From: Vicugna vicugna
Taxonomy: Eukaryota
Length of the DNA: 59,711 nucleotides
Reading direction: 5' to 3'
NCBI GenBank assembly: GCA_013265495.1
Contig: MU057477.1
Coordinates: 124,001 to 183,711 of the forward strand
A program made the translations under genes and the position numbers. Positions 9,401-59,711 of this stretch are shown one piece after another. Positions within the stretch are counted from its first letter, which is position 1. Each line of letters opens with the position of its first letter. The notes under the pieces are model-generated. The model worked only from the letters and a program-made list of their open reading frames with translations, had not been told where the DNA came from and ran no database searches.

Positions 9401-9518
9401 GTTCTTTTTGATTGCCCTTTCAAGGCCCGAGCTTTGAGTTTTGCTGCTTCATTTGGGTGCAGTTAAATTCTGGTTCTCAAATGAACTAGCACTAAAAGCA
9501 CGGCCATTGTCCTTGCAG

Positions 9519-9677
9519 AAACTTGGGGACTGTGGCAGCCATGGAGCCAGTGTAGCGCCACGTGCGGGGACGGTGTCAGAGAGCGTCGCCGCCTGTGCCT
9601 CACCTCCTTCCCCTCCCGACCCGGCTGCCCTGGAATGTCCTCGGAGACCTCCCCGTGTTCCCTGGAGGAGTGCGCTG
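9519..9677 (+). CDS. THSD1: THSD1 penultimate coding exon, thrombospondin type-1 repeat (159 nt, phase 1-1)
   Basis: ccttgcag| acceptor and |gtaggt donor; translates (E)TWGLWQPWSQCSATCGDGVRERRRLCLTSFPSRPGCPGMSSETSPCSLEECA with the WxxWxxWSxCSxTCG TSR motif; in frame with the exon at 14058. Confidence 0.96.
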
Positions 9678-9713
9678 GTAGGTATCCTTTCTCCTTCGGG
9701 AGTCTGTTCCTGG

Positions 9714-9830
9714 AGGGGACTTGCTCAGCAGTAGAGCACGTGCTTAGCATCATGGTTCAGTCCCCAGTACCTCCACTGAAAAAAAAAAGTTAAATAAACA
9801 TAATTACTCCCCCCCCAAAATAAATAAAAC
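9714..9830 (+). mobile_element. Vic-1-type SINE, internally deleted, about 36 nt downstream of the TSP1 exon donor
   Basis: ggggacttgctcagcagtagagcacgtgcttagcatcatggttcagtccccagtacctccac followed by an A-rich tail. Confidence 0.8.
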
Positions 9831-13930: not shown

Positions 13931-14057
13931 ACCAGAAATCCTAGTCTTTGTTTATGTTACTTTAACTGCTAGAGAGTTAGAGCAAACCACTCAGAGACCT
14001 TCTACCCACGCAGAGAAAACAATACCAGAGGATACACCGCTCTTCCTTATTTTGTAG

Positions 14058-15439
14058 CTTTCCGGCCATCCAGTCAGTCTCCCCTCCAGCCCCAGGGTCC
14101 AGTGAAGTCCAACAACATCGTGACGGTCACTGGGATATCCCTGTGCTTGTTCATCATCCTGGCCACCGTCCTCATCACGCTGTGGCGGAAGTTCGGCCGC
14201 GCCCCCAAGTGCAGCACCCCCGCGCGCCACAACTCCCTCCACGGCCCTGGCTGCCGGAAGAACTCGGACGAGGAGAACATCTGCGAGCTGAGCGAGGCGC
14301 GCGGGAGCTTCTCGGACGCGGGCGATGGGCCGGCGGGGGGCCCGGGGGACCTGGGCATCCCTCTGACCTACCGGCGGAGTGCGCCGGCGCCCCCCGACGA
14401 CGAGGCCTCGGGCAGCGAGAGCTTCCAGCCCAACGCGCAGAAGATAATCCCGCCCCTGTTTAGCTACCGCCTCGCCCAGCAGCAGCTGAAGGAGATGAAG
14501 AAGAAAGGCCTGACGGAAACCACCAAGGTGTACCACGTGTCCCAGAGCCCCCTGACCGACACCGCCATCGACGCCGCCGCCGCCGCGCCCCCCGGGGACT
14601 CGGAGAGCCCGGAAGAGGCGGCCGCCGGCAAGTTCCGGATCAAATCCCCGTTCCTGGAGCCGCCCGCGGCCGGGGCCGGGGAAAGGCCCACCTCCAGGCT
14701 GGCTGTCGCTGTGTCGCCGGCCAGCTGTGCCGTCAGCCCCAGCCAGACCGTGATCCGCAAGTCGCAGATGAGGCACGCGGGCGGCAGGGGGGCGCTGCCG
14801 GAGAGGAGCCACCCCAGGAGTTCCCATTTCCGCAGGACGGCGAGCTTTCACGAGGCCAAGCAGGCCCGGCCGTTCCGCGAGCGGAGCCTGTCCACGCTGA
14901 CCCCGCGGCAGGCCCCCGCCTGCGGTTCCAGGACGCACACCTGGGACCAGGCGGAAGACCGATTCCGGCCTCCGAGTCGAGGCGCTGCCCTGCTTCCGGA
15001 GAAGCTGGACCACGGCCAGGGGGCAAGTGGAACCGGTGGTGCGTTAAGCCCTCTCCCTAAATCCCACACCTTGGGGCAGCACACGAGGAAGCCAGACCTG
15101 GGGGATCGCCAGGCAGGATTCGTGGTAGGCGGGGAGAGAACGGAGCCTCACCGAGCTCGAAGGGGACCGTCCCCCAGTCACAGGAGCGTCTCAAGGAAGC
15201 AGCCGTCCCCCACCGCCCCCAAAGATAGCTACCAGAGGGTCAGTCCTCTGAGCCCTTCTCAGTGTAGAAAAGACAAGTGTCAGAGCTTCCCCGCCCACCC
15301 AGAGTTTGCCTTCTACGACAATACATCGTTCGGTCTCACTGAGGCCGAGCAGAGGATGCTGGACCTCCCGGGATATTTTGGGTCAAATGAAGAAGATGAA
15401 ACCACAAGTACGCTGAGTGTGGAGAAGCTGGTCATCTAG
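14058..15439 (+). CDS. THSD1: THSD1 terminal coding exon: transmembrane helix and long Ser/Pro/Arg-rich cytoplasmic tail
   Basis: ttattttgtag| acceptor, phase 1; reads (A)FRPSSQSPLQPQGPVKSNNIVTVTGISLCLFIILATVLITLWRKFGR...YFGSNEEDETTSTLSVEKLVI*, which I recognise as the THSD1 C-terminus. The ORF-track start at 14102 is an internal GTG, not a true start. Confidence 0.97.
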
Positions 15440-49728: not shown

Positions 49729-49781
49729 ATGAAGAGATTGAAGGACAACCTATATGGTTGGTTCAGACCTCAAAAAAATAA
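49729..49781 (+). CDS. TPTE2: Putative TPTE/TPTE2 first coding exon (coding part): MKRLKDNLYGWFRPQKN(K)
   Basis: Acceptor ccttttcttag| at 49691 (alternative at 49702); gccATG Kozak context; AA|gtaagt donor in phase 2, in frame with the next exon; gene identity inferred from synteny and exon architecture. Confidence 0.6.
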
Positions 49782-50679: not shown

Positions 50680-52471
50680 TGTATGGTTGTGTCTTTATTC
50701 TTTTCTACTATTTTTTCTGGGAGAGTTTCTCAAGTTCATCTTCCAACTCTAAACTAATTTGCCTTTCACATGTATCCAAACTACTCTTTATCCCATGAAT
50801 GGATTCTTTATTTCAACAATTCTACTTTTACATGTAAGATTTCCTGTTGGGTTTTTTTTCCTTAAGGCTTCTTCTTCTCATTTCATGTTCCTAACATCTT
50901 CCCTTGTATCTGTAAGTGTGCTTCTCATTCGTACCCAAAAACCTTGGTCAGTGTGTTCCGCTGGTTCTGCTTCAGATGGTACATGTTGCTCAGTTTGGTG
51001 TATTTCTTTTGCTTGTTGTACTCTGTTTTGACTTGTGAGCTCATATTCATTGTGGCCGTCGGCCCCTCTGTCTAGTAACCAGTATTAGGGAAGGGCTGAA
51101 GGTGGGACAATCTCTGTCTGTGGCTGTTGTCTCAACATAATTATTAACAGCATGTCCTTGTCACTTTCAAAAGTGTCCTGGCTTGGGCAAGGTATTATAT
51201 AGGCAACTAGTTGAAAGCTGGGACCTAGGGTGTGTTTTTCTCAATAAGTTTAACGTGAGGGGAGATGATAAGCTTGGGCATAGAGTTTCAGGGACCACGA
51301 AACACTATGACCAGGTAATTCGTGTGGTCAGGTATGCCACCTTTAAGCTCATGGGCAAAGCAGCCTTGGAGGAGGCAGTGACTCTAGGTTGTCACCTGGG
51401 GCTTTGGAGATGGGCTGGTTGTGTAAGAGTGAATGCCCAAGGACTGCTCTTCAGCCTTTCCCTGTTTTCATCAGCTAACCTAATGCCACTGGAGTATTAT
51501 TACCTACCTACACCTGGGTGGTTGCTACTGGTTTCTACTGAGAAGGCAGTGATTGTCTCCAACTCAAGGGAAAGACAAGAACAGAACTTAAAATTGTCCC
51601 GCCCCCTGGGCCCCTCCAGACTGACGCCAGCTGCCCTTTCCCACAGCCTGTCTGCCAGTTAAGGATGGACTCCTCTAGAATGTCCCAGGGTTTGTCTTGT
51701 TGTTTCTTGGAATTCATACTTCTGTTGGACTTCTACAGTTTTGGGAGGAAGACTGTCTCTCATCTCAGATAGGAACTCAAGATTTCCCAGGAAATTATGG
51801 AGTGTATTACTTTGAGAATCTTTGTGTTTAAAATTTAAAACATGTATGAGTTTTATATTGTTGTCATGTACTGGCTTTTGGCATAGCATTTGGTGAAGAA
51901 GACAGGCTGCCTAACCAGTAATATTGGTGAAATGGTAAATATTTAGCAGGCTTTTATGACGTGAACAGATGCAAAGTGCATTTTCATGTGTCTTATTTGA
52001 CAGGTGAGGAAATTGAGTTGTGAAGAGGTTAAATTATCCAAGCCAGTGATTTGGTGGTGAGAAGTCTTGATTTTGGATAAGATAACCAGATATGTTTTTG
52101 AAATTCAGAGAAAAAGAAAAAGGAACCATTCTAAACATGCTCTACCTCTAGTTCAGAAAAAGAAAGAAAGAAATATTATACTATATAGGTCACTGTTGAC
52201 CTAACTACCTATTTCTTCTCTACCAAATGATGGACAGGGACTAGTCGTTGGCATTGGAATATTCATTGTTCTGGCATTTTCTTTTTCTGTATCCCTTCCT
52301 TAGCTGTTACCTGGATCCACCTCCCTATCCCTGCGTTCTCACATCTTTCATGTTTCTCAGATTCCTTCCAGAGCGTGTGAATGTTGACAAAGTGGGGAAG
52401 AAGAAAGGAGGTTTAATAATGCCACACCTCCCTTTACTTCTTTCCTTCTCCTTCCAGTGGATTCACAGACA

Positions 52472-52474
<3 letters not shown>

Positions 52475-52530
<56 letters not shown>
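52475..52530. repeat. (CA)n microsatellite, about 28 units
   Basis: Directly visible; a shorter (TG)n lies at about 41464-41496. Confidence 0.95.
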
Positions 52531-52705: not shown

Positions 52706-52753
52706 AGTTATGGATGCCCCTTCGGGCTCCTCTGACAACACTGACAGTGTAAG
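52706..52753 (+). CDS. TPTE2: Putative TPTE/TPTE2 micro-exon, 48 nt, phase 2-2: VMDAPSGSSDNTDSV(R)
   Basis: ttttttcaccctttggcag| acceptor and AAG|gtgagt donor; no stop codon; internal in-frame ATG at 52710 is a possible alternative start. Confidence 0.68.
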
Positions 52754-53490: not shown

Positions 53491-53544
53491 AAGTGACCCA
53501 AATGAACTGCCATCAGGAATCCATCATGGAGTCACCCATGAAAG
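53491..53544 (+). CDS. TPTE2: Putative TPTE/TPTE2 micro-exon, 54 nt, phase 2-2: SDPNELPSGIHHGVTHE(S)
   Basis: tttttaattccttag| acceptor and GAAAG|gtgagg donor; same 18-codon, ...ES-ending design as I recall for human TPTE N-terminal exons. Confidence 0.72.
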
Positions 53545-54761
53545 GTGAGGAATATATTAAGGGGTGAGTGAATGGGATGGAGAAATTTAGTATCAGGATT
53601 ATCTGTGGCAGTACAGAATTTTCTGGACAATGATTTAAAATCCTTTCTAAAAAGATAGGGGTTTCAATGAATTATGTTTACTACATATTTTAGATTCAAG
53701 GGATTCTTATTGTTCAGATATATTGATTATATTGCTGTTCTGTATAGAATATCTCTAGTGATACATTTCTGCATTTTTGGGATATTCAAAGTAAAACAGA
53801 ACAATTTTCCAGGCTGGGTGATGGTAATGGAGACAATAATGTTCCTGGTTCATATGAATAAGTCAGTGTCAAGTTTGAAAGGCAGGAACTGTTGGTGGAT
53901 CTCTTTTCATTGGGAAGGTAGGGTTTATGCTGAGGCAAGGAGAAAAGGGAGAACTAGGGAAAGATATCAATGTTTGGGAGGGAAGGGGTTACAATAAATC
54001 ATCCTAATTTGATTTATAGAAAATACCATCTTTTTAAAAATTACATTTATCACAATTAAATATTCTAGTTTGAAAATCTTCTACTTTTCAGAAGAGTTTG
54101 AGAAGAGCGGTATTAGTTCTTGTTTAATGTTTAGTAGATTTTACCAGTGAAGCCATCTGGTCCTGGCCTTTTGTGTTTTGGAAAGTTTGATTACTAATTC
54201 AGTCTCCTTACTAGCAACTAGTCTGTTGAGATTCTCTGTTTCTTCATATTTCAGTCTTGGTAAGTTATGGGAGCCTGCTGCCCCAAACCCAACCGCCCCA
54301 TCATATGGAGGGAGCCTCTGACTCAGGCCTGTGCTTACTCTGCAGGATCCGAGGAGCAGGAAAGATGACCAAGATGAGGAGTCAGAGGGTGATGAAGGGA
54401 CTTGAGAAGCAGGAAGTTAGGTGAGGGGAGAGGGATGTATAGCTGCAAACTGAAGTCGAATTTGAAATAAATTCCACAAAAGGATGCTACATATTGGGTC
54501 AGATTCAGCAGTAAAGGACTATACTTAATTCTTGAATTGTTAGCTTTTACGGTAGGTCAAAAATATTTATTATAAACATATAAAAAATCATTTCTAGGGA
54601 AGAGGAGATATCAGATTCCAAATAACTGATTTACTTTACTGATGTGAGTTTTCTAAGAATCAACCAGTTGATAAGTTTAAGAATCATTGTAGCTGATTTG
54701 AAAAAAAGTAAAAGTCTAGAAGTCATGGGATATCTTATTCTGTCTATTTTTAATGCTTTAG

Positions 54762-54815
54762 CACTTCCCTGAGTAAACTGACATCAGTATCCTCTGAAGG
54801 ACTCTCCAGTGAACA
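54762..54815 (+). CDS. TPTE2: Putative TPTE/TPTE2 micro-exon A1, 54 nt: TSLSKLTSVSSEGLSSE(H)
   Basis: tttttaatgctttag| acceptor and CA|gtgaga donor; phase 2-2, open. Confidence 0.68.
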
Positions 54816-55463
54816 GTGAGATACAAAGCATAAATACATATATGTGCACACACACACAAATGCATACGGATACAGAGTGAGATTTGGGACGTTCACCCTA
54901 GGAGCACCCATGGGAATACAGAGTTCCTTTCATAGTATTTCTAAAGTCCTCTTGTGGTTAGATTCTATGTATAATATTCTTTGTCTTTGGAACTGAAGTA
55001 GAAAAAGAGGCACAAGACAAAGAGGGGATTTCTTACTCCTGTCTTAACTCTCAGTTACTATCAGCCAAACTCTTAGGAAACTGTCCGATTGCCTGTGTCT
55101 GAGACGCTAATAGAGTGTGTCCGGGGAGGAGAATAACCTATTCAGAGCAAGGAGAATGATGGTAACTTGTAAGTAGTAAATAAATAGTAGCAGTGGACAG
55201 GGAGCAGAGGAGGCCTCAACGGAAGAGCATGGAGCTAAGAGACCTGGATCTGTCCCTCACCCTGCAGATTCAGCCACCAAGTGAGGCTAGTGCCTCAAAT
55301 CCAAATGCACCATCATATGGAGGGAGCCCCTGACTCAGGCCTGCAGTTACTTGACCGTATCCCAGGGGCAGGAAAGACATCCTTTGTTTCTAAAGAGCAC
55401 AGTCATGATGGAGGAATTGAGAATCAGGAAATTAGATTGCTCAAGAAAGATGGGAACCAGGAA

Positions 55464-55562
55464 GGGGGTGAGTAGAGCTCAGTGGTAGAGCGTGTGCTTA
55501 GCATGCACGAGGTCCTGGGTTTAATCCTCAGTTCCTCTATCAAAAAAAAAAACAAAAAAAAA
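55464..55562 (+). mobile_element. Vic-1-type SINE within repeat unit 1
   Basis: gggggtgagtagagctcagtggtagagcgtgtgcttagcatgcacgaggtcctgggtttaatcc followed by poly-A. Confidence 0.9.
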
Positions 55563-55860
55563 CGGTACTTACAACTGAGGTTGATTTTGGAATAAATGCT
55601 ACCCCAAAAGGCTGTGACATATTGGGTCAGGTTCAATAGTAAAGAATTGTACCTAAGTCTTGGGTCATTACATGTTTGACAGTATAAGACATTCATTGCA
55701 AATTCGTAAAGCCTCATTTCTTGGGAAAATAACCTTCCAGGTTTCAAATAATTGATTTACACATCAGTTTTTAAAGGGTCGCCTAGTTTATAATTTGAAC
55801 CAAAGAATTCAATCTAGAAAATTATGTGGCGTCTGACTATGTTGCTTTTTAATCCTTTAG

Positions 55861-55914
55861 CACTGCCTTGCCTGAACGGACAACAGGAACAGCTGACAGA
55901 ACCAGAACTGAAAG
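55861..55914 (+). CDS. TPTE2: Putative TPTE/TPTE2 micro-exon B1, 54 nt: TALPERTTGTADRTRTE(S)
   Basis: tttttaatcctttag| acceptor and GAAAG|gtgaga donor; phase 2-2, open. Confidence 0.7.
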
Positions 55915-56204
55915 GTGAGACAGAAAGAGAGAGAGATGTAAACAAAAGCATGTACATAAATGCAGAGAGAGGCACATGAGAATGGGAATGAGAGAAACCG
56001 GGAGGGAGCCGAAGAGGGGAGGGAAAGATTAACTGAAATTGAGATCGGTAATTTGGGAGGTTCATTTTTCAAGAGTATCTGTCACGTAAGTGTCTTTGAC
56101 ATTGTTTCTAAATCTTTTTTACTTCACCATATGTAAGTATCTTTCTGTCTTTTTTGCATCTAGTTGGATAAAAGAGAAGCAGGTCATAAGAGAGATGCGT
56201 CTTA

Positions 56205-56622
56205 GTTTTTTATTTTTTATTTTTTTAAAAAGGTGACGTGAGAATTTATTAGAGAATGGATAGTACACTCAGGGGAGAGCGCGCAGGCTCAAGGGAGCGG
56301 CTGCCCTGAGTTTCTTTGACAAGTTAGCTCCATAGGGTGTAAAAATGAATGGGCGGAATATTCATTGGGCAGGGAAGGGTTTGGGGTCGCATTCCCTGAT
56401 TATCATCCCAACTCCACCTTTCCAAAGGGAGGAGGGATTTTTGTCCTTATTTAGTCTGGATCAGAAGTGTCATGGCGTCGGTGCATGATGGGTACTTCTA
56501 ATTTGCAAGGCTAATTTTATTGAAATGAGGGTATAATGAGCAAAAGATCATATTCGGACACTAGAAATTCCTGCTCTTTCTCACCTTTCTTTGTTCTTCT
56601 CCAGGCCACTAGTCATCCCAAA
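56205..56622 (-). mobile_element. Poly(A)-tailed, 5'-truncated retrocopy of a MER41-like LTR (unit 1)
   Basis: Minus strand shows LTR motifs, then AATAAA (56250-56245), 18 nt, and an A-rich tail; 14-bp TSD agagatgc(g/t)tctta at 56191-56204 and 56623-56636. Confidence 0.75.
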
Positions 56623-57034
56623 AGAGATGCTTCTTATACTCATCTGTTTATCACTCTTAAGTGGCCGCCCCAAATCCTAAGAGACTATCCAAATGCTGGA
56701 GTATGAGACTCTCCAAAAATGGGCCAAGAAAGGAGAGAAACCTCTTTTGGAGCCAGGAGAAGTCTGTACTCCTGAAAGTGTTCAGGAGTAAAGAAATGCC
56801 CAGAAACTTGATCCACTGTTTGTTTGTTTGTTTTTCTATAGGACTAAGATTTTCATTACAAATGTATAAAGCCTCCTTTACAGGGAGAAATTAAATGCCA
56901 GGTTTCAAATAACTGATTAGAATGTAATTTTTAGGGCAACTATATTATAAACTGCAGAGTAATTGTAGCTAATTTGCATTTTAAAATCTAGAAAGACATA
57001 TGGAATCTTATTATGTGCATTTTTAATCCTTTAG

Positions 57035-57085
57035 TTATGACCAAAGCCAGTTGGAAGAAGTAATTTGTGTTGAACCTCTTGAAGG
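57035..57085 (+). CDS. TPTE2: Putative TPTE/TPTE2 micro-exon C1, 51 nt: YDQSQLEEVICVEPLE(G)
   Basis: tttttaatcctttag| acceptor and GG|gtgaga donor; phase 2-2, open. Confidence 0.68.
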
Positions 57086-57258
57086 GTGAGATATAAATAT
57101 ATATAGATAGAGTGGGGGGTGGGGTGGGTATTGAGATTTGTGAAATTTACCTTGGTGGTATCTATGACATATCTTACTTTGCCTATTTTTAATCCTTTAG
57201 CAAAGAAATTTACCGGTATCTGTGACATATCTTACTTTGCCTATTTTTAATCCTTTAG

Positions 57259-57312
57259 CCCTTCCCTGAATAATGTGACATCAGTATCCTCTGAAGGACT
57301 CTCCAGTGAACA
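57259..57312 (+). CDS. TPTE2: Putative TPTE/TPTE2 micro-exon A2, 54 nt: PSLNNVTSVSSEGLSSE(H)
   Basis: tttttaatcctttag| acceptor and CA|gtgaga donor; diverged paralogue of exon A1. Confidence 0.65.
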
Positions 57313-57971
57313 GTGAGATACAAAGCATAAATACATATATGTGCACTATGTACACAAACACACACAAATGCGTACGGATACAGAGTGAGATTTGGGATGT
57401 TCACCCTAGGAGCACCCATGGGAATACAGAGTTCCTTTGATAGCATTTCTGAAGTCCTCTTGTGGTTAGATTCTATGTGTAATATTCTTTGTCTTTGGAA
57501 CTGAAGTAGAAAAAGAGGCACAAGACAAAGAGGGGATTTCTTACTCCTGTCTTAACTCTCAGTTACTATCAGCCAAACTCTTAGGAAACTGTCCGATTGC
57601 CTGTGTCTGAGACGCTAATAGAGTGTGTCCGGGGAGGAGAATAACCTATTCAGAGCAAGGAGAATGATGGTAACTTGTAAGTAGTAAATAAATAGTAGCA
57701 GTGGACAGGGAGCAGAGGAGGCCTCAACGGAAGAGCATGGAGCTAAGAGACCTGGATCTGTCCCTCACCCTGCAGATTCAGCCACCAAGTGAGGCTAGTG
57801 CCTCAAATCCAAATGCACCATCATATGGAGGGAGCCCCTGACTCAGGCCTGCAGTTACTTGACCGTATCCCAGGGGCAGGAAAGACATCCTTTGTTTCTA
57901 AAGAGCACAGTCATGATGGAGGAATTGAGAATCAGGAAATTAGATTGCTCAAGAAAGATGGGAACCAGGAA

Positions 57972-58072
57972 GGGGGTGAGTAGAGCTCAGTGGTAGAGCG
58001 TGTGCTTAGCATGCACGAGGTCCTGGGTTTAATCCTCAGTTCCTCTATCAAAAAAAAAAACAAAAAAAAAAA
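57972..58072 (+). mobile_element. Vic-1-type SINE within repeat unit 2
   Basis: Copy of 55464-55562 at offset 2508. Confidence 0.9.
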
Positions 58073-58368
58073 GTACTTACAACTGAGGTTGATTTTGGAA
58101 TAAATGCTACCCCAAAAGGCTGTGACATATTGGGTCAGGTTCAATAGTAAAGAATTGTACCTAAGTCTTGGGTCATTACATGTTTGACAGTATAAGACAT
58201 TCATTGCAAATTCGTAAAGCCTCATTTCTTGGGAAAATAACCTTCCAGGTTTCAAATAATTGATTTACACATCAGTTTTTAAAGGGTCGCCTAGTTTATA
58301 ATTTGAACCAAAGAATTCAATCTAGAAAATTATGTGGCGTCTGACTATGTTGCTTTTTAATCCTTTAG

Positions 58369-58422
58369 CACTGCCTTGCCTGAACGGACAACAGGAACAG
58401 CTGACAGAACCAGAACTGAAAG
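58369..58422 (+). CDS. TPTE2: Putative TPTE/TPTE2 micro-exon B2, 54 nt (identical to B1)
   Basis: Same splice sites and sequence as 55861-55914. Confidence 0.65.
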
Positions 58423-58712
58423 GTGAGACAGAAAGAGAGAGAGATGTAAACAAAAGCATGTACATAAATGCAGAGAGAGGCACATGAGAATGGGAATGAG
58501 AGAAACCGGGAGGGAGCCGAAGAGGGGAGGGAAAGATTAACTGAAATTGAGATCGGTAATTTGGGAGGTTCATTTTTCAAGAGTATCTGTCACGTAAGTG
58601 TCTTTGACATTGTTTCTAAATCTTTTTTACTTCACCATATGTAAGTATCTTTCTGTCTTTTTTGCATCTAGTTGGATAAAAGAGAAGCAGGTCATAAGAG
58701 AGATGCGTCTTA

Positions 58713-59130
58713 GTTTTTTATTTTTTATTTTTTTAAAAAGGTGACGTGAGAATTTATTAGAGAATGGATAGTACACTCAGGGGAGAGCGCGCAGGCTCAA
58801 GGGAGCGGCTGCCCTGAGTTTCTTTGACAAGTTAGCTCCATAGGGTGTAAAAATGAATGGGCGGAATATTCATTGGGCAGGGAAGGGTTTGGGGTCGCAT
58901 TCCCTGATTATCATCCCAACTCCACCTTTCCAAAGGGAGGAGGGATTTTTGTCCTTATTTAGTCTGGATCAGAAGTGTCATGGCGTCGGTGCATGATGGG
59001 TACTTCTAATTTGCAAGGCTAATTTTATTGAAATGAGGGTATAATGAGCAAAAGATCATATTCGGACACTAGAAATTCCTGCTCTTTCTCACCTTTCTTT
59101 GTTCTTCTCCAGGCCACTAGTCATCCCAAA
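58713..59130 (-). mobile_element. Poly(A)-tailed LTR retrocopy (unit 2)
   Basis: Copy of 56205-56622; TSD at 58699-58712 and 59131-59144. Confidence 0.75.
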
Positions 59131-59542
59131 AGAGATGCTTCTTATACTCATCTGTTTATCACTCTTAAGTGGCCGCCCCAAATCCTAAGAGACTATCCAA
59201 ATGCTGGAGTATGAGACTCTCCAAAAATGGGCCAAGAAAGGAGAGAAACCTCTTTTGGAGCCAGGAGAAGTCTGTACTCCTGAAAGTGTTCAGGAGTAAA
59301 GAAATGCCCAGAAACTTGATCCACTGTTTGTTTGTTTGTTTTTCTATAGGACTAAGATTTTCATTACAAATGTATAAAGCCTCCTTTACAGGGAGAAATT
59401 AAATGCCAGGTTTCAAATAACTGATTAGAATGTAATTTTTAGGGCAACTATATTATAAACTGCAGAGTAATTGTAGCTAATTTGCATTTTAAAATCTAGA
59501 AAGACATATGGAATCTTATTATGTGCATTTTTAATCCTTTAG

Positions 59543-59593
59543 TTATGACCAAAGCCAGTTGGAAGAAGTAATTTGTGTTGAACCTCTTGAAGG
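59543..59593 (+). CDS. TPTE2: Putative TPTE/TPTE2 micro-exon C2, 51 nt (identical to C1); the next A-type exon begins at 59709 at the window edge
   Basis: Same splice sites and sequence as 57035-57085; the window ends tttttaatcctttag|CCC. Confidence 0.65.
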
Positions 59594-59711
59594 GTGAGAT
59601 ATAAATATATATAGATAGAGTGGGGGGTGGGGTGGGTATTGAGATTTGTGAAATTTACCTTGGTGGTATCTATGACATATCTTACTTTGCCTATTTTTAA
59701 TCCTTTAGCCC

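Follow-up and report, generated by a model that had tools for sequence, protein, structure and literature searches.

The window analysed here is a stretch of 59,711 nucleotides from Vicugna vicugna (assembly GCA_013265495.1, 2.03 Gb in 12,405 contigs) and corresponds to positions 124001-183711 of contig MU057477.1 (C243), which carries on past the window to 220,669 b. Judged by sequence similarity, it contains the 5' portion of a TPTE2-like gene for a voltage-sensing phosphoinositide phosphatase (VSP), and its end holds two head-to-tail units of about 2.5 kb, each carrying short coding exons. The translation of a downstream exon matched eight proteins, seven of them named TPTE2 or TPTE2-like (Vicugna pacos, Camelus dromedarius and C. 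ferus) and the eighth nameless. A tblastn search of the window and the downstream loci with alpaca isoform X2 (P0007) outlined a plus-strand gene reaching from a start codon at 49729 to a last exon at 94595-94723 in extended coordinates. The exon map spans the S1-S4 voltage-sensor region and the exons of the C2 domain. The phosphatase P-loop HCxxGxxR is present and divided between two exons at 79175-79267 and 82147-82209 (extended coordinates), which encode ..IIVVHCKGGKG and GRTGTMICAYLL, respectively (HCKGGKG/GRTG). The Pfam domain DSPc was recovered on the single phosphatase exon only as a weak match below the cut-off (E = 0.0024), and the camelid models carry precomputed Pfam assignments PF10409 and PF22784/5. 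A preliminary description of this DNA had placed the exons in the N-terminus of a sperm protein. This agrees with a TPTE2-like gene, the relatives of which are testis and sperm proteins. Their expression in testis or sperm is known for human and mouse (PMC3229583, PMC13039310, PMC11344830). Reportedly, VSP shapes the phosphoinositide distribution in the mammalian sperm flagellum (PMC11344830, PMC7515568) and the knockout of mouse Tpte reduces sperm count and motility (PMC13039310).

The exons in question are mini-exons of 51 or 54 nt, designated e53, A, B, C, A', B', C' and A'' in the order of their occurrence (Table 1). A, B, C, A', B' and C' all possess AG acceptors and GT donors and contribute one nucleotide at the beginning and two at the end of split codons, so that neither the inclusion nor the skipping of any one of them shifts the reading frame. 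The preliminary description had emphasized that exons of 54, 54 and 51 nt add up to 159 nt and that each added copy thus preserves the frame. The sum stands, while the preservation of the frame is no special property of it, each exon alone being a multiple of three. In terms of B-C-A', one unit adds 54 + 51 + 54 = 159 nt or 53 amino acids with a frame that stays open across units, and B, C, A', B' and C' joined in silico gave 264 nt free of stop codons. The third A-type exon that had been noted in the last three bases of the window was likewise recovered, its CCC matching the start of A'.

Table 1. Coding exons, repeat units and shared mobile elements at the TPTE2-like locus (window positions unless stated otherwise)
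Feature	Position	Strand	Basis
Coding exon 1 (MKRLKDNLYGWFRPQKN..), donor GTAAGT	49729..49781	+	tblastn with alpaca P0007, 18/18 identical; sequence context
Coding exon 2 (VMDAPSGSSDNTDSV-)	52706..52753	+	Six-frame motif search, splice sites read
e53 (RSDPNELPSGIHHGVTHE), 54 nt, oldest visible member of the mini-exon family	53491..53544	+	tblastn, splice sites
Unit 1 (A flank, B, C, junction with 58-bp duplication)	54730..57226	+	Repeat search, self-BLAST, alignment
A (TSLSKLTSVSSEGLSSE), 54 nt	54762..54815	+	tblastn, splice sites; AG/GT intact
tRNA-derived SINE with A-rich tail, unit 1	55468..55562	+	Rfam tRNA, 34.4 bits at 55468-55539
B (TALPERTTGTADRTRTE), 54 nt	55861..55914	+	Identical to alpaca models
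Dispersed retroposed element of ~400 bp (AATAAA and A-rich tail)	56205..56622	-	Sequence, genome matches
C (YDQSQLEEVICVEPLE), 51 nt	57035..57085	+	tblastn, splice sites
58-bp tandem duplication of the A' acceptor region	57142..57259	+	Copies 57142-57201 / 57205-57259, 90%
Unit 2	57227..59709	+	Self-BLAST, alignment
A' (PSLNNVTSVSSEGLSSE), 54 nt	57259..57312	+	Identical to alpaca models
tRNA-derived SINE, unit 2	57976..58047	+	Rfam tRNA
B', 54 nt, identical to B	58369..58422	+	Alignment
C', 51 nt, identical to C	59543..59593	+	Alignment
A'', first 3 nt (CCC after ...tttag) of a third A'-type exon	59709..59711	+	Matches start of A'; followed by 1,940 N
C2 mini-exon, GG at the acceptor	L009:3553-3554 = contig C243:186553-186554 (beyond the window)		Sequence

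Beyond the repeat itself, the mini-exons resemble each other. The acceptor motif TATTTTTAATCCTTTAG occurs nine times at a maximum of three mismatches, compared to 0.58 expected occurrences, and the approximately 350 bp upstream of the exons are 59-66% alike across exon types, rising to 75% for C and a further mini-exon, C2, which lies beyond the window. The flank of e53 shows 59-63% identity to those of A, B, C, A' and C2 over 81-377 columns. Due to the recurrence of the motif and the similarity of the flanks, the mini-exons are to be regarded, on sequence grounds, as an old tandem family, above which the 2.5-kb repeat would form a second, young tier.

Self-BLAST aligned 54730-57201 with 57227-59709 at 98.913% identity over 2483 columns and a shift of 2508, and both a direct-repeat search and counts of identity by shift agree with this result. 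Thus, the proposed head-to-tail duplication of about 2.5 kb, near-identical over about 2.2 kb, is confirmed, with approximately 2.23 kb of the unit effectively identical between the copies. Tandem Repeats Finder, which handles periods of up to 500, did not report the array. The global alignment of the two units contains 27 differing columns, with 14 substitutions and one 11-bp indel all located within 54738-54971; from there to 57201, the single difference is CG versus AA at 55563-55564, in the A-rich tail of a short interspersed element (SINE). Accordingly, 14 substitutions fall into 242 bp (54730-54971), whereas the following 2230 bp contain two, which are adjacent (Fisher p = 5e-13). This crowding of differences into the first 242 bp rules out a single recent duplication of a whole A-B-C unit. 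Moreover, the units are not uniform, as their two junctions differ by a 58-bp duplication. It is confined to the transition from C to A', where it provides a second ...tttag 58 nt upstream of the A' acceptor, and is missing between C' and A'' (59650-59708).

Both units share two mobile elements. The tRNA-derived SINE, in which ARAGORN recognized no tRNA gene, has further copies in the window at approximately 75-81% identity (self-BLAST). The element of approximately 400 bp is flanked by a target-site duplication of 14 bp (56191-56204 and 56623-56636, 13 of 14 positions matching), and at least 40 scored genome copies of this repeat (56224-56624) at 90-93% identity were obtained from 2444 first-look candidates. 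As both units carry both insertions, these are older than the duplication, as had been proposed. The accompanying designation of the second element as an LTR retrocopy finds no support: the A-rich tail, the AATAAA signal and the target-site duplication, together with the missing TG...CA ends, rule out a canonical LTR insertion.

The origin of the repeat can be approached by means of the flanks of A and A'. Their 14 substitutions and the 11-bp indel in 242 bp correspond to a Jukes-Cantor distance of 0.06, which places the A/A' split at 14-30 My under an assumed rate of 1-2.2e-9 per site per year and is compatible with the presence of both exons in Camelus. Unit 2 carries every A'-specific variant up to position 57479 and then continues as an exact copy of the intron following A, with a constant register (shift 2508) across the switch from approximately 94% to 100% identity at ~54971/57479. 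Since the junction is in register, which random breakpoints would not be, it points to a crossover between the flanks of A' and A, and the unequal crossover suggested in the preliminary description predicts such a junction within older paralogous flanks. Unequal homologous crossover hence fits as the mechanism, as far as the sequence can tell. In the first step of such a history, the old paralogous exons A and A', separated by about 2.5 kb, would have formed direct repeats around B and C, a state that appears to persist in Camelus models. In a second step, with the SINE and the 400-bp element already in place, the flanks of A and A' would have recombined by unequal homologous crossover, by which B-C-A' was copied head to tail. 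The present assembly shows two units and the first bases of another one before it breaks off, the true array probably being longer. Altogether, we consider it likely that the 2.5-kb coding tandem array in this TPTE2-like gene is real, arose by unequal crossover between A and A' and probably extends beyond its assembled length.

The same identity pattern could also be produced if the units were old and kept alike by ongoing gene conversion, i.e., by concerted evolution instead of recent duplication. The sharp jump in identity from about 94% to 100% at ~54971 would fit such homogenization, as would the identical peptides encoded by the four units of an alpaca model described below and by the two A exons of Camelus. 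Nevertheless, Camelus models lack a second B-C pair, which means that the duplication either arose after the divergence from Camelus or has disappeared in that genus. Furthermore, it would be unusual for conversion tracts to reach 2.2 kb and to share such sharply defined borders. At the assumed rates (1-2.2e-9 per site and year), the absence of substitutions over approximately 2.2 kb limits the age of the event, or of the last homogenization, to at most 0.3-0.7 My. In view of these points, we regard long-standing conversion as distinctly unlikely and maintain the recent crossover.

Protein models of other camelids offer an independent view on the number of units. The alpaca protein XP_072832266.1 (P0009, 777 aa) contains the 53-residue B-C-A' peptide four times exactly, starting at residues 53, 106, 159 and 212, and includes all 12 unit exons. 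It was predicted on a contig of 73.9 Mb and, therefore, on an assembly other than the 220,669-b contig considered here. The four-unit form is thus already visible in a public RefSeq model. Within exons, the protein encoded by the window differs from P0009 at five residues, some of which have their states in common with Camelus; due to these differences, the array is seen in two non-identical genomes. The Camelus TPTE2 isoforms X1 (P0017, P0022; XP_010949759.2 / XP_010980710.1) belong to the orthologous gene and share the mini-exons A, B, C and C2, but their models are free of tandem B-C-A' repeats and read A-B-C-A-C2, with one B-C and identical peptides for both A exons. Hence, the expansion looks lineage-specific, as the preliminary description had assumed, with one B-C between two A exons in Camelus and four B-C-A' units in the newer alpaca model. 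The tail preceding the transmembrane helix S1 accordingly measures 303 residues in P0009, 151 in P0007 and 169 in Camelus X1, and camelid TPTE2-like models span 596 to 777 aa through the array locus and the choice of isoform. In sum, one unit is found in older alpaca models, four in the newer one and at least two plus a gap in the window, which assembly collapse fits as well as polymorphism.

The gap follows directly after the last base of the window and consists of 1,940 N (extended coordinates 59712-61651). As the window stops exactly at this run and the other N runs vary in size (116 and 64), it is likely a scaffold gap inside the repeat array, and since the end of the window adjoins it, the assembly gives the copy number as a minimum of two units. 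Behind the gap, a third copy of the intron piece of A-type exons occurs at positions 2652-2710 of the downstream locus L009, 87% identical over approximately 55 bp. Compared to the A' intron, it features a 5-bp deletion and several substitutions and turns into unrelated sequence after approximately 55 bp; these differences rule it out as the ancestral A' intron. Farther downstream, a C-type exon region of 78% identity follows.

Such a gap raises the question of an assembly artefact, according to which the genome would have a single B-C unit (A-B-C-A'-C2) and the second would stem from gap filling or from haplotypes placed in tandem. The end of unit 2 at the N run, the complete identity of the copies over 2.2 kb save in the A-tract and the single unit of older alpaca gene models would all agree with this explanation. 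It is, however, difficult to reconcile with an independent, chromosome-scale alpaca model comprising four units and with an A' flank that joins the shared sequence in register while bearing its own 14 substitutions and 11-bp insertion. Besides, the unit junctions differ by the 58-bp duplication and a third A-type flank, the 87%-identical piece, lies beyond the gap, and the assembler must therefore have had separate sequence for each flank. Neither were loose extra copies of the 2.5-kb unit found on the other contigs of the genome. Haplotypes in tandem are unlikely in particular, as A' must run into the shared sequence in register and the alpaca has four units. An artefact is therefore considered highly improbable, and of the two caveats raised in the preliminary description, a false duplication or a collapsed longer array, the latter proves to be the better one, with unit 2 meeting the 1,940-N run and four units in the alpaca. 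Most likely, the duplication exists in the genome and belongs to a longer array than the assembly could represent; given the four alpaca units, the true array probably exceeds the two units seen.

Still, several observations weigh against a real and longer array that originated from a simple crossover. XP_072832266.1 is an automatic gene model and was read as protein only, and five older alpaca models (P0006, P0007, P0010, P0011, P0012) show B, C and A' at most once. Among 8000 database candidates scored, no shorter protein with the repeat occurred. The A-type piece behind the gap is unexplained by a history of A-B-C-A'-C2 and one crossover, and the restriction of the 58-bp duplication to the first junction misfits one clean event. 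In addition, short-read scaffold sequence beside a gap may represent a consensus of collapsed copies, by which the 100% identity is possibly overstated. The locus is in any case a trap for short-read assembly and annotation. Exact-pattern scans of metagenome contigs for the junction from C' to A'' and for exon B yielded no matches for either.

A real array does not necessarily lengthen the protein. If the extra exons were skipped or used alternatively, it would be neutral intronic baggage. All mini-exons are indeed symmetric cassettes, the alpaca isoforms P0010 and P0011 omit C or B and C, and exon A, in spite of its open frame and intact AG/GT splice sites, is used in none of the six alpaca protein models, whereas Camelus models use their own A. 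Several splice variants are also described for human TPTE and TPIP (PMC3229583). On the other hand, the sequences of B', C' and the A'' acceptor flank are the same as in exons used by the models, and the four-unit alpaca model employs all 12 exons. General skipping of the additional exons is thus possible, though unlikely, and the exon sequences suggest that all units are spliced in.

Two further observations concern exons behind the array. The mini-exon C2 (GDLSELKEVVCAKDSNE; L009:3555-3608) is preceded by GG in place of the acceptor AG of its sister exons (...taatcctttGGcggtgac). It is included in five older alpaca models and skipped in the four-unit model. C2 may have been lost in this lineage or vary in its usability. 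The exon following C2 (L009:4670-4801) contains an 11-residue internal repeat of the VEEQLSSLDD type in P0012 and P0009, which is lacking in P0007. The difference is either a small repeat within the exon or an alternative splice site in the N-terminal tail.

With regard to the protein, each unit contributes 53 residues, comprising 15 S/T, 10 D/E, 3 K/R and 11 large hydrophobic residues. AlphaFold2 assigned pLDDT values below 50 to residues 1-298 of P0009, in which the array is located (block means 28-46, with hardly any secondary structure, namely two very short helices), the input being a 30-sequence VSP alignment without homologues of the repeat, which itself lowers the confidence over the tail. 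From about residue 300 on, i.e., in the voltage sensor, the phosphatase and the C2 domain, pLDDT mostly ranged between 70 and 98, and the fold consisted of helices at 300-455, then an alpha/beta and finally a beta domain, all with high pLDDT. According to this model, the array would lengthen a disordered cytoplasmic tail in front of S1. The catalytic portion is not altered. Our best guess from the sequence is that the change in the length of the tail is largely neutral and possibly adds phospho-acceptor or acidic sites. To our knowledge, no role has been assigned to the N-terminal tail of mammalian voltage-sensing phosphatases. Alleles or species differing by steps of 53 aa would represent a natural length series for investigations of its role in trafficking, voltage coupling and sperm function.

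As an event, the camelid array belongs to an ordinary kind, namely coding multi-exon tandem arrays. With arrays of the LPA KIV-2 kind, it shares near-identical, kilobase-sized head-to-tail units that contain whole exons with intact splice sites, as well as a coding length per unit that is a multiple of three, each unit lengthening the protein, as is predicted for the camelid one. In contrast, the camelid unit consists of three mini-exons of 17-18 codons and encodes no folded domain, and two to four units have been recorded so far. No paper on the TPTE2 array locus was found in the open-access full text searched.

Counterparts within the gene family came from a periodicity screen that covered nine VSP N-termini over their first 330 residues. 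The 777-aa alpaca model displayed a period of 53 (36/36), and Camelus X1 the same period at 23/36, reflecting its two A exons. Periods of 19 and 36 were obtained for TPTE2 of Dipodomys spectabilis (XP_042541424.1; 30/36 and 28/36), and of 18 and 36 for a Microcebus TPTE2-like isoform X17 (XP_020146001.1; 30/36 and 24/36). The other five N-termini showed no periodicity (best 9-12/36). These included mouse Tpte/VSP (NP_954866.2), which is the best non-camelid representative, with 57% identity over residues 182-774 and a voltage-sensor domain, phosphatase and C2, but which lacks N-terminal periodicity (best 12/36). The models of Dipodomys and Microcebus (P0030, P0032) thus resemble the camelid case in belonging to the same family and in bearing N-terminal repeats, of 18-19 aa, in the same pre-S1 region. 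They differ in their unrelated peptides and in a period of one or two modules as opposed to a three-exon cassette of 53 aa, the comparison having been made at the protein level. Judged by these sequences, the amplification of N-terminal modules seems to recur in the VSP family. The camelid case thereby loses some of its singularity but hints at a pattern. A more far-reaching and rather doubtful proposal is that B-C-A' constitutes a still-active, copy-number-variable coding macrosatellite with one to at least four units in South American camelids, and an instance of a so far undescribed, repeated amplification of N-terminal 18-aa mini-exons in the sperm VSP genes of separate mammalian lineages (camelids, kangaroo rat, mouse lemur). 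If this were true, rapid and possibly sexually selected evolution would act on how long or how charged the disordered tail before the voltage sensor is, and would tune the trafficking or regulation of VSP in the flagellum.

Apart from the array, the window contains a (CA)n microsatellite of 33.5 copies at 52464-52530, in the intron before exon 2. Upstream of the TPTE2-like gene, a neighbouring gene on the plus strand comprises an exon with a TSP_1 domain at 9485-9790 (Pfam E = 3.4e-12) and an open exon of 488 codons with a hydrophobic segment at 13973-15436. This gene presumably resembles THSD1.

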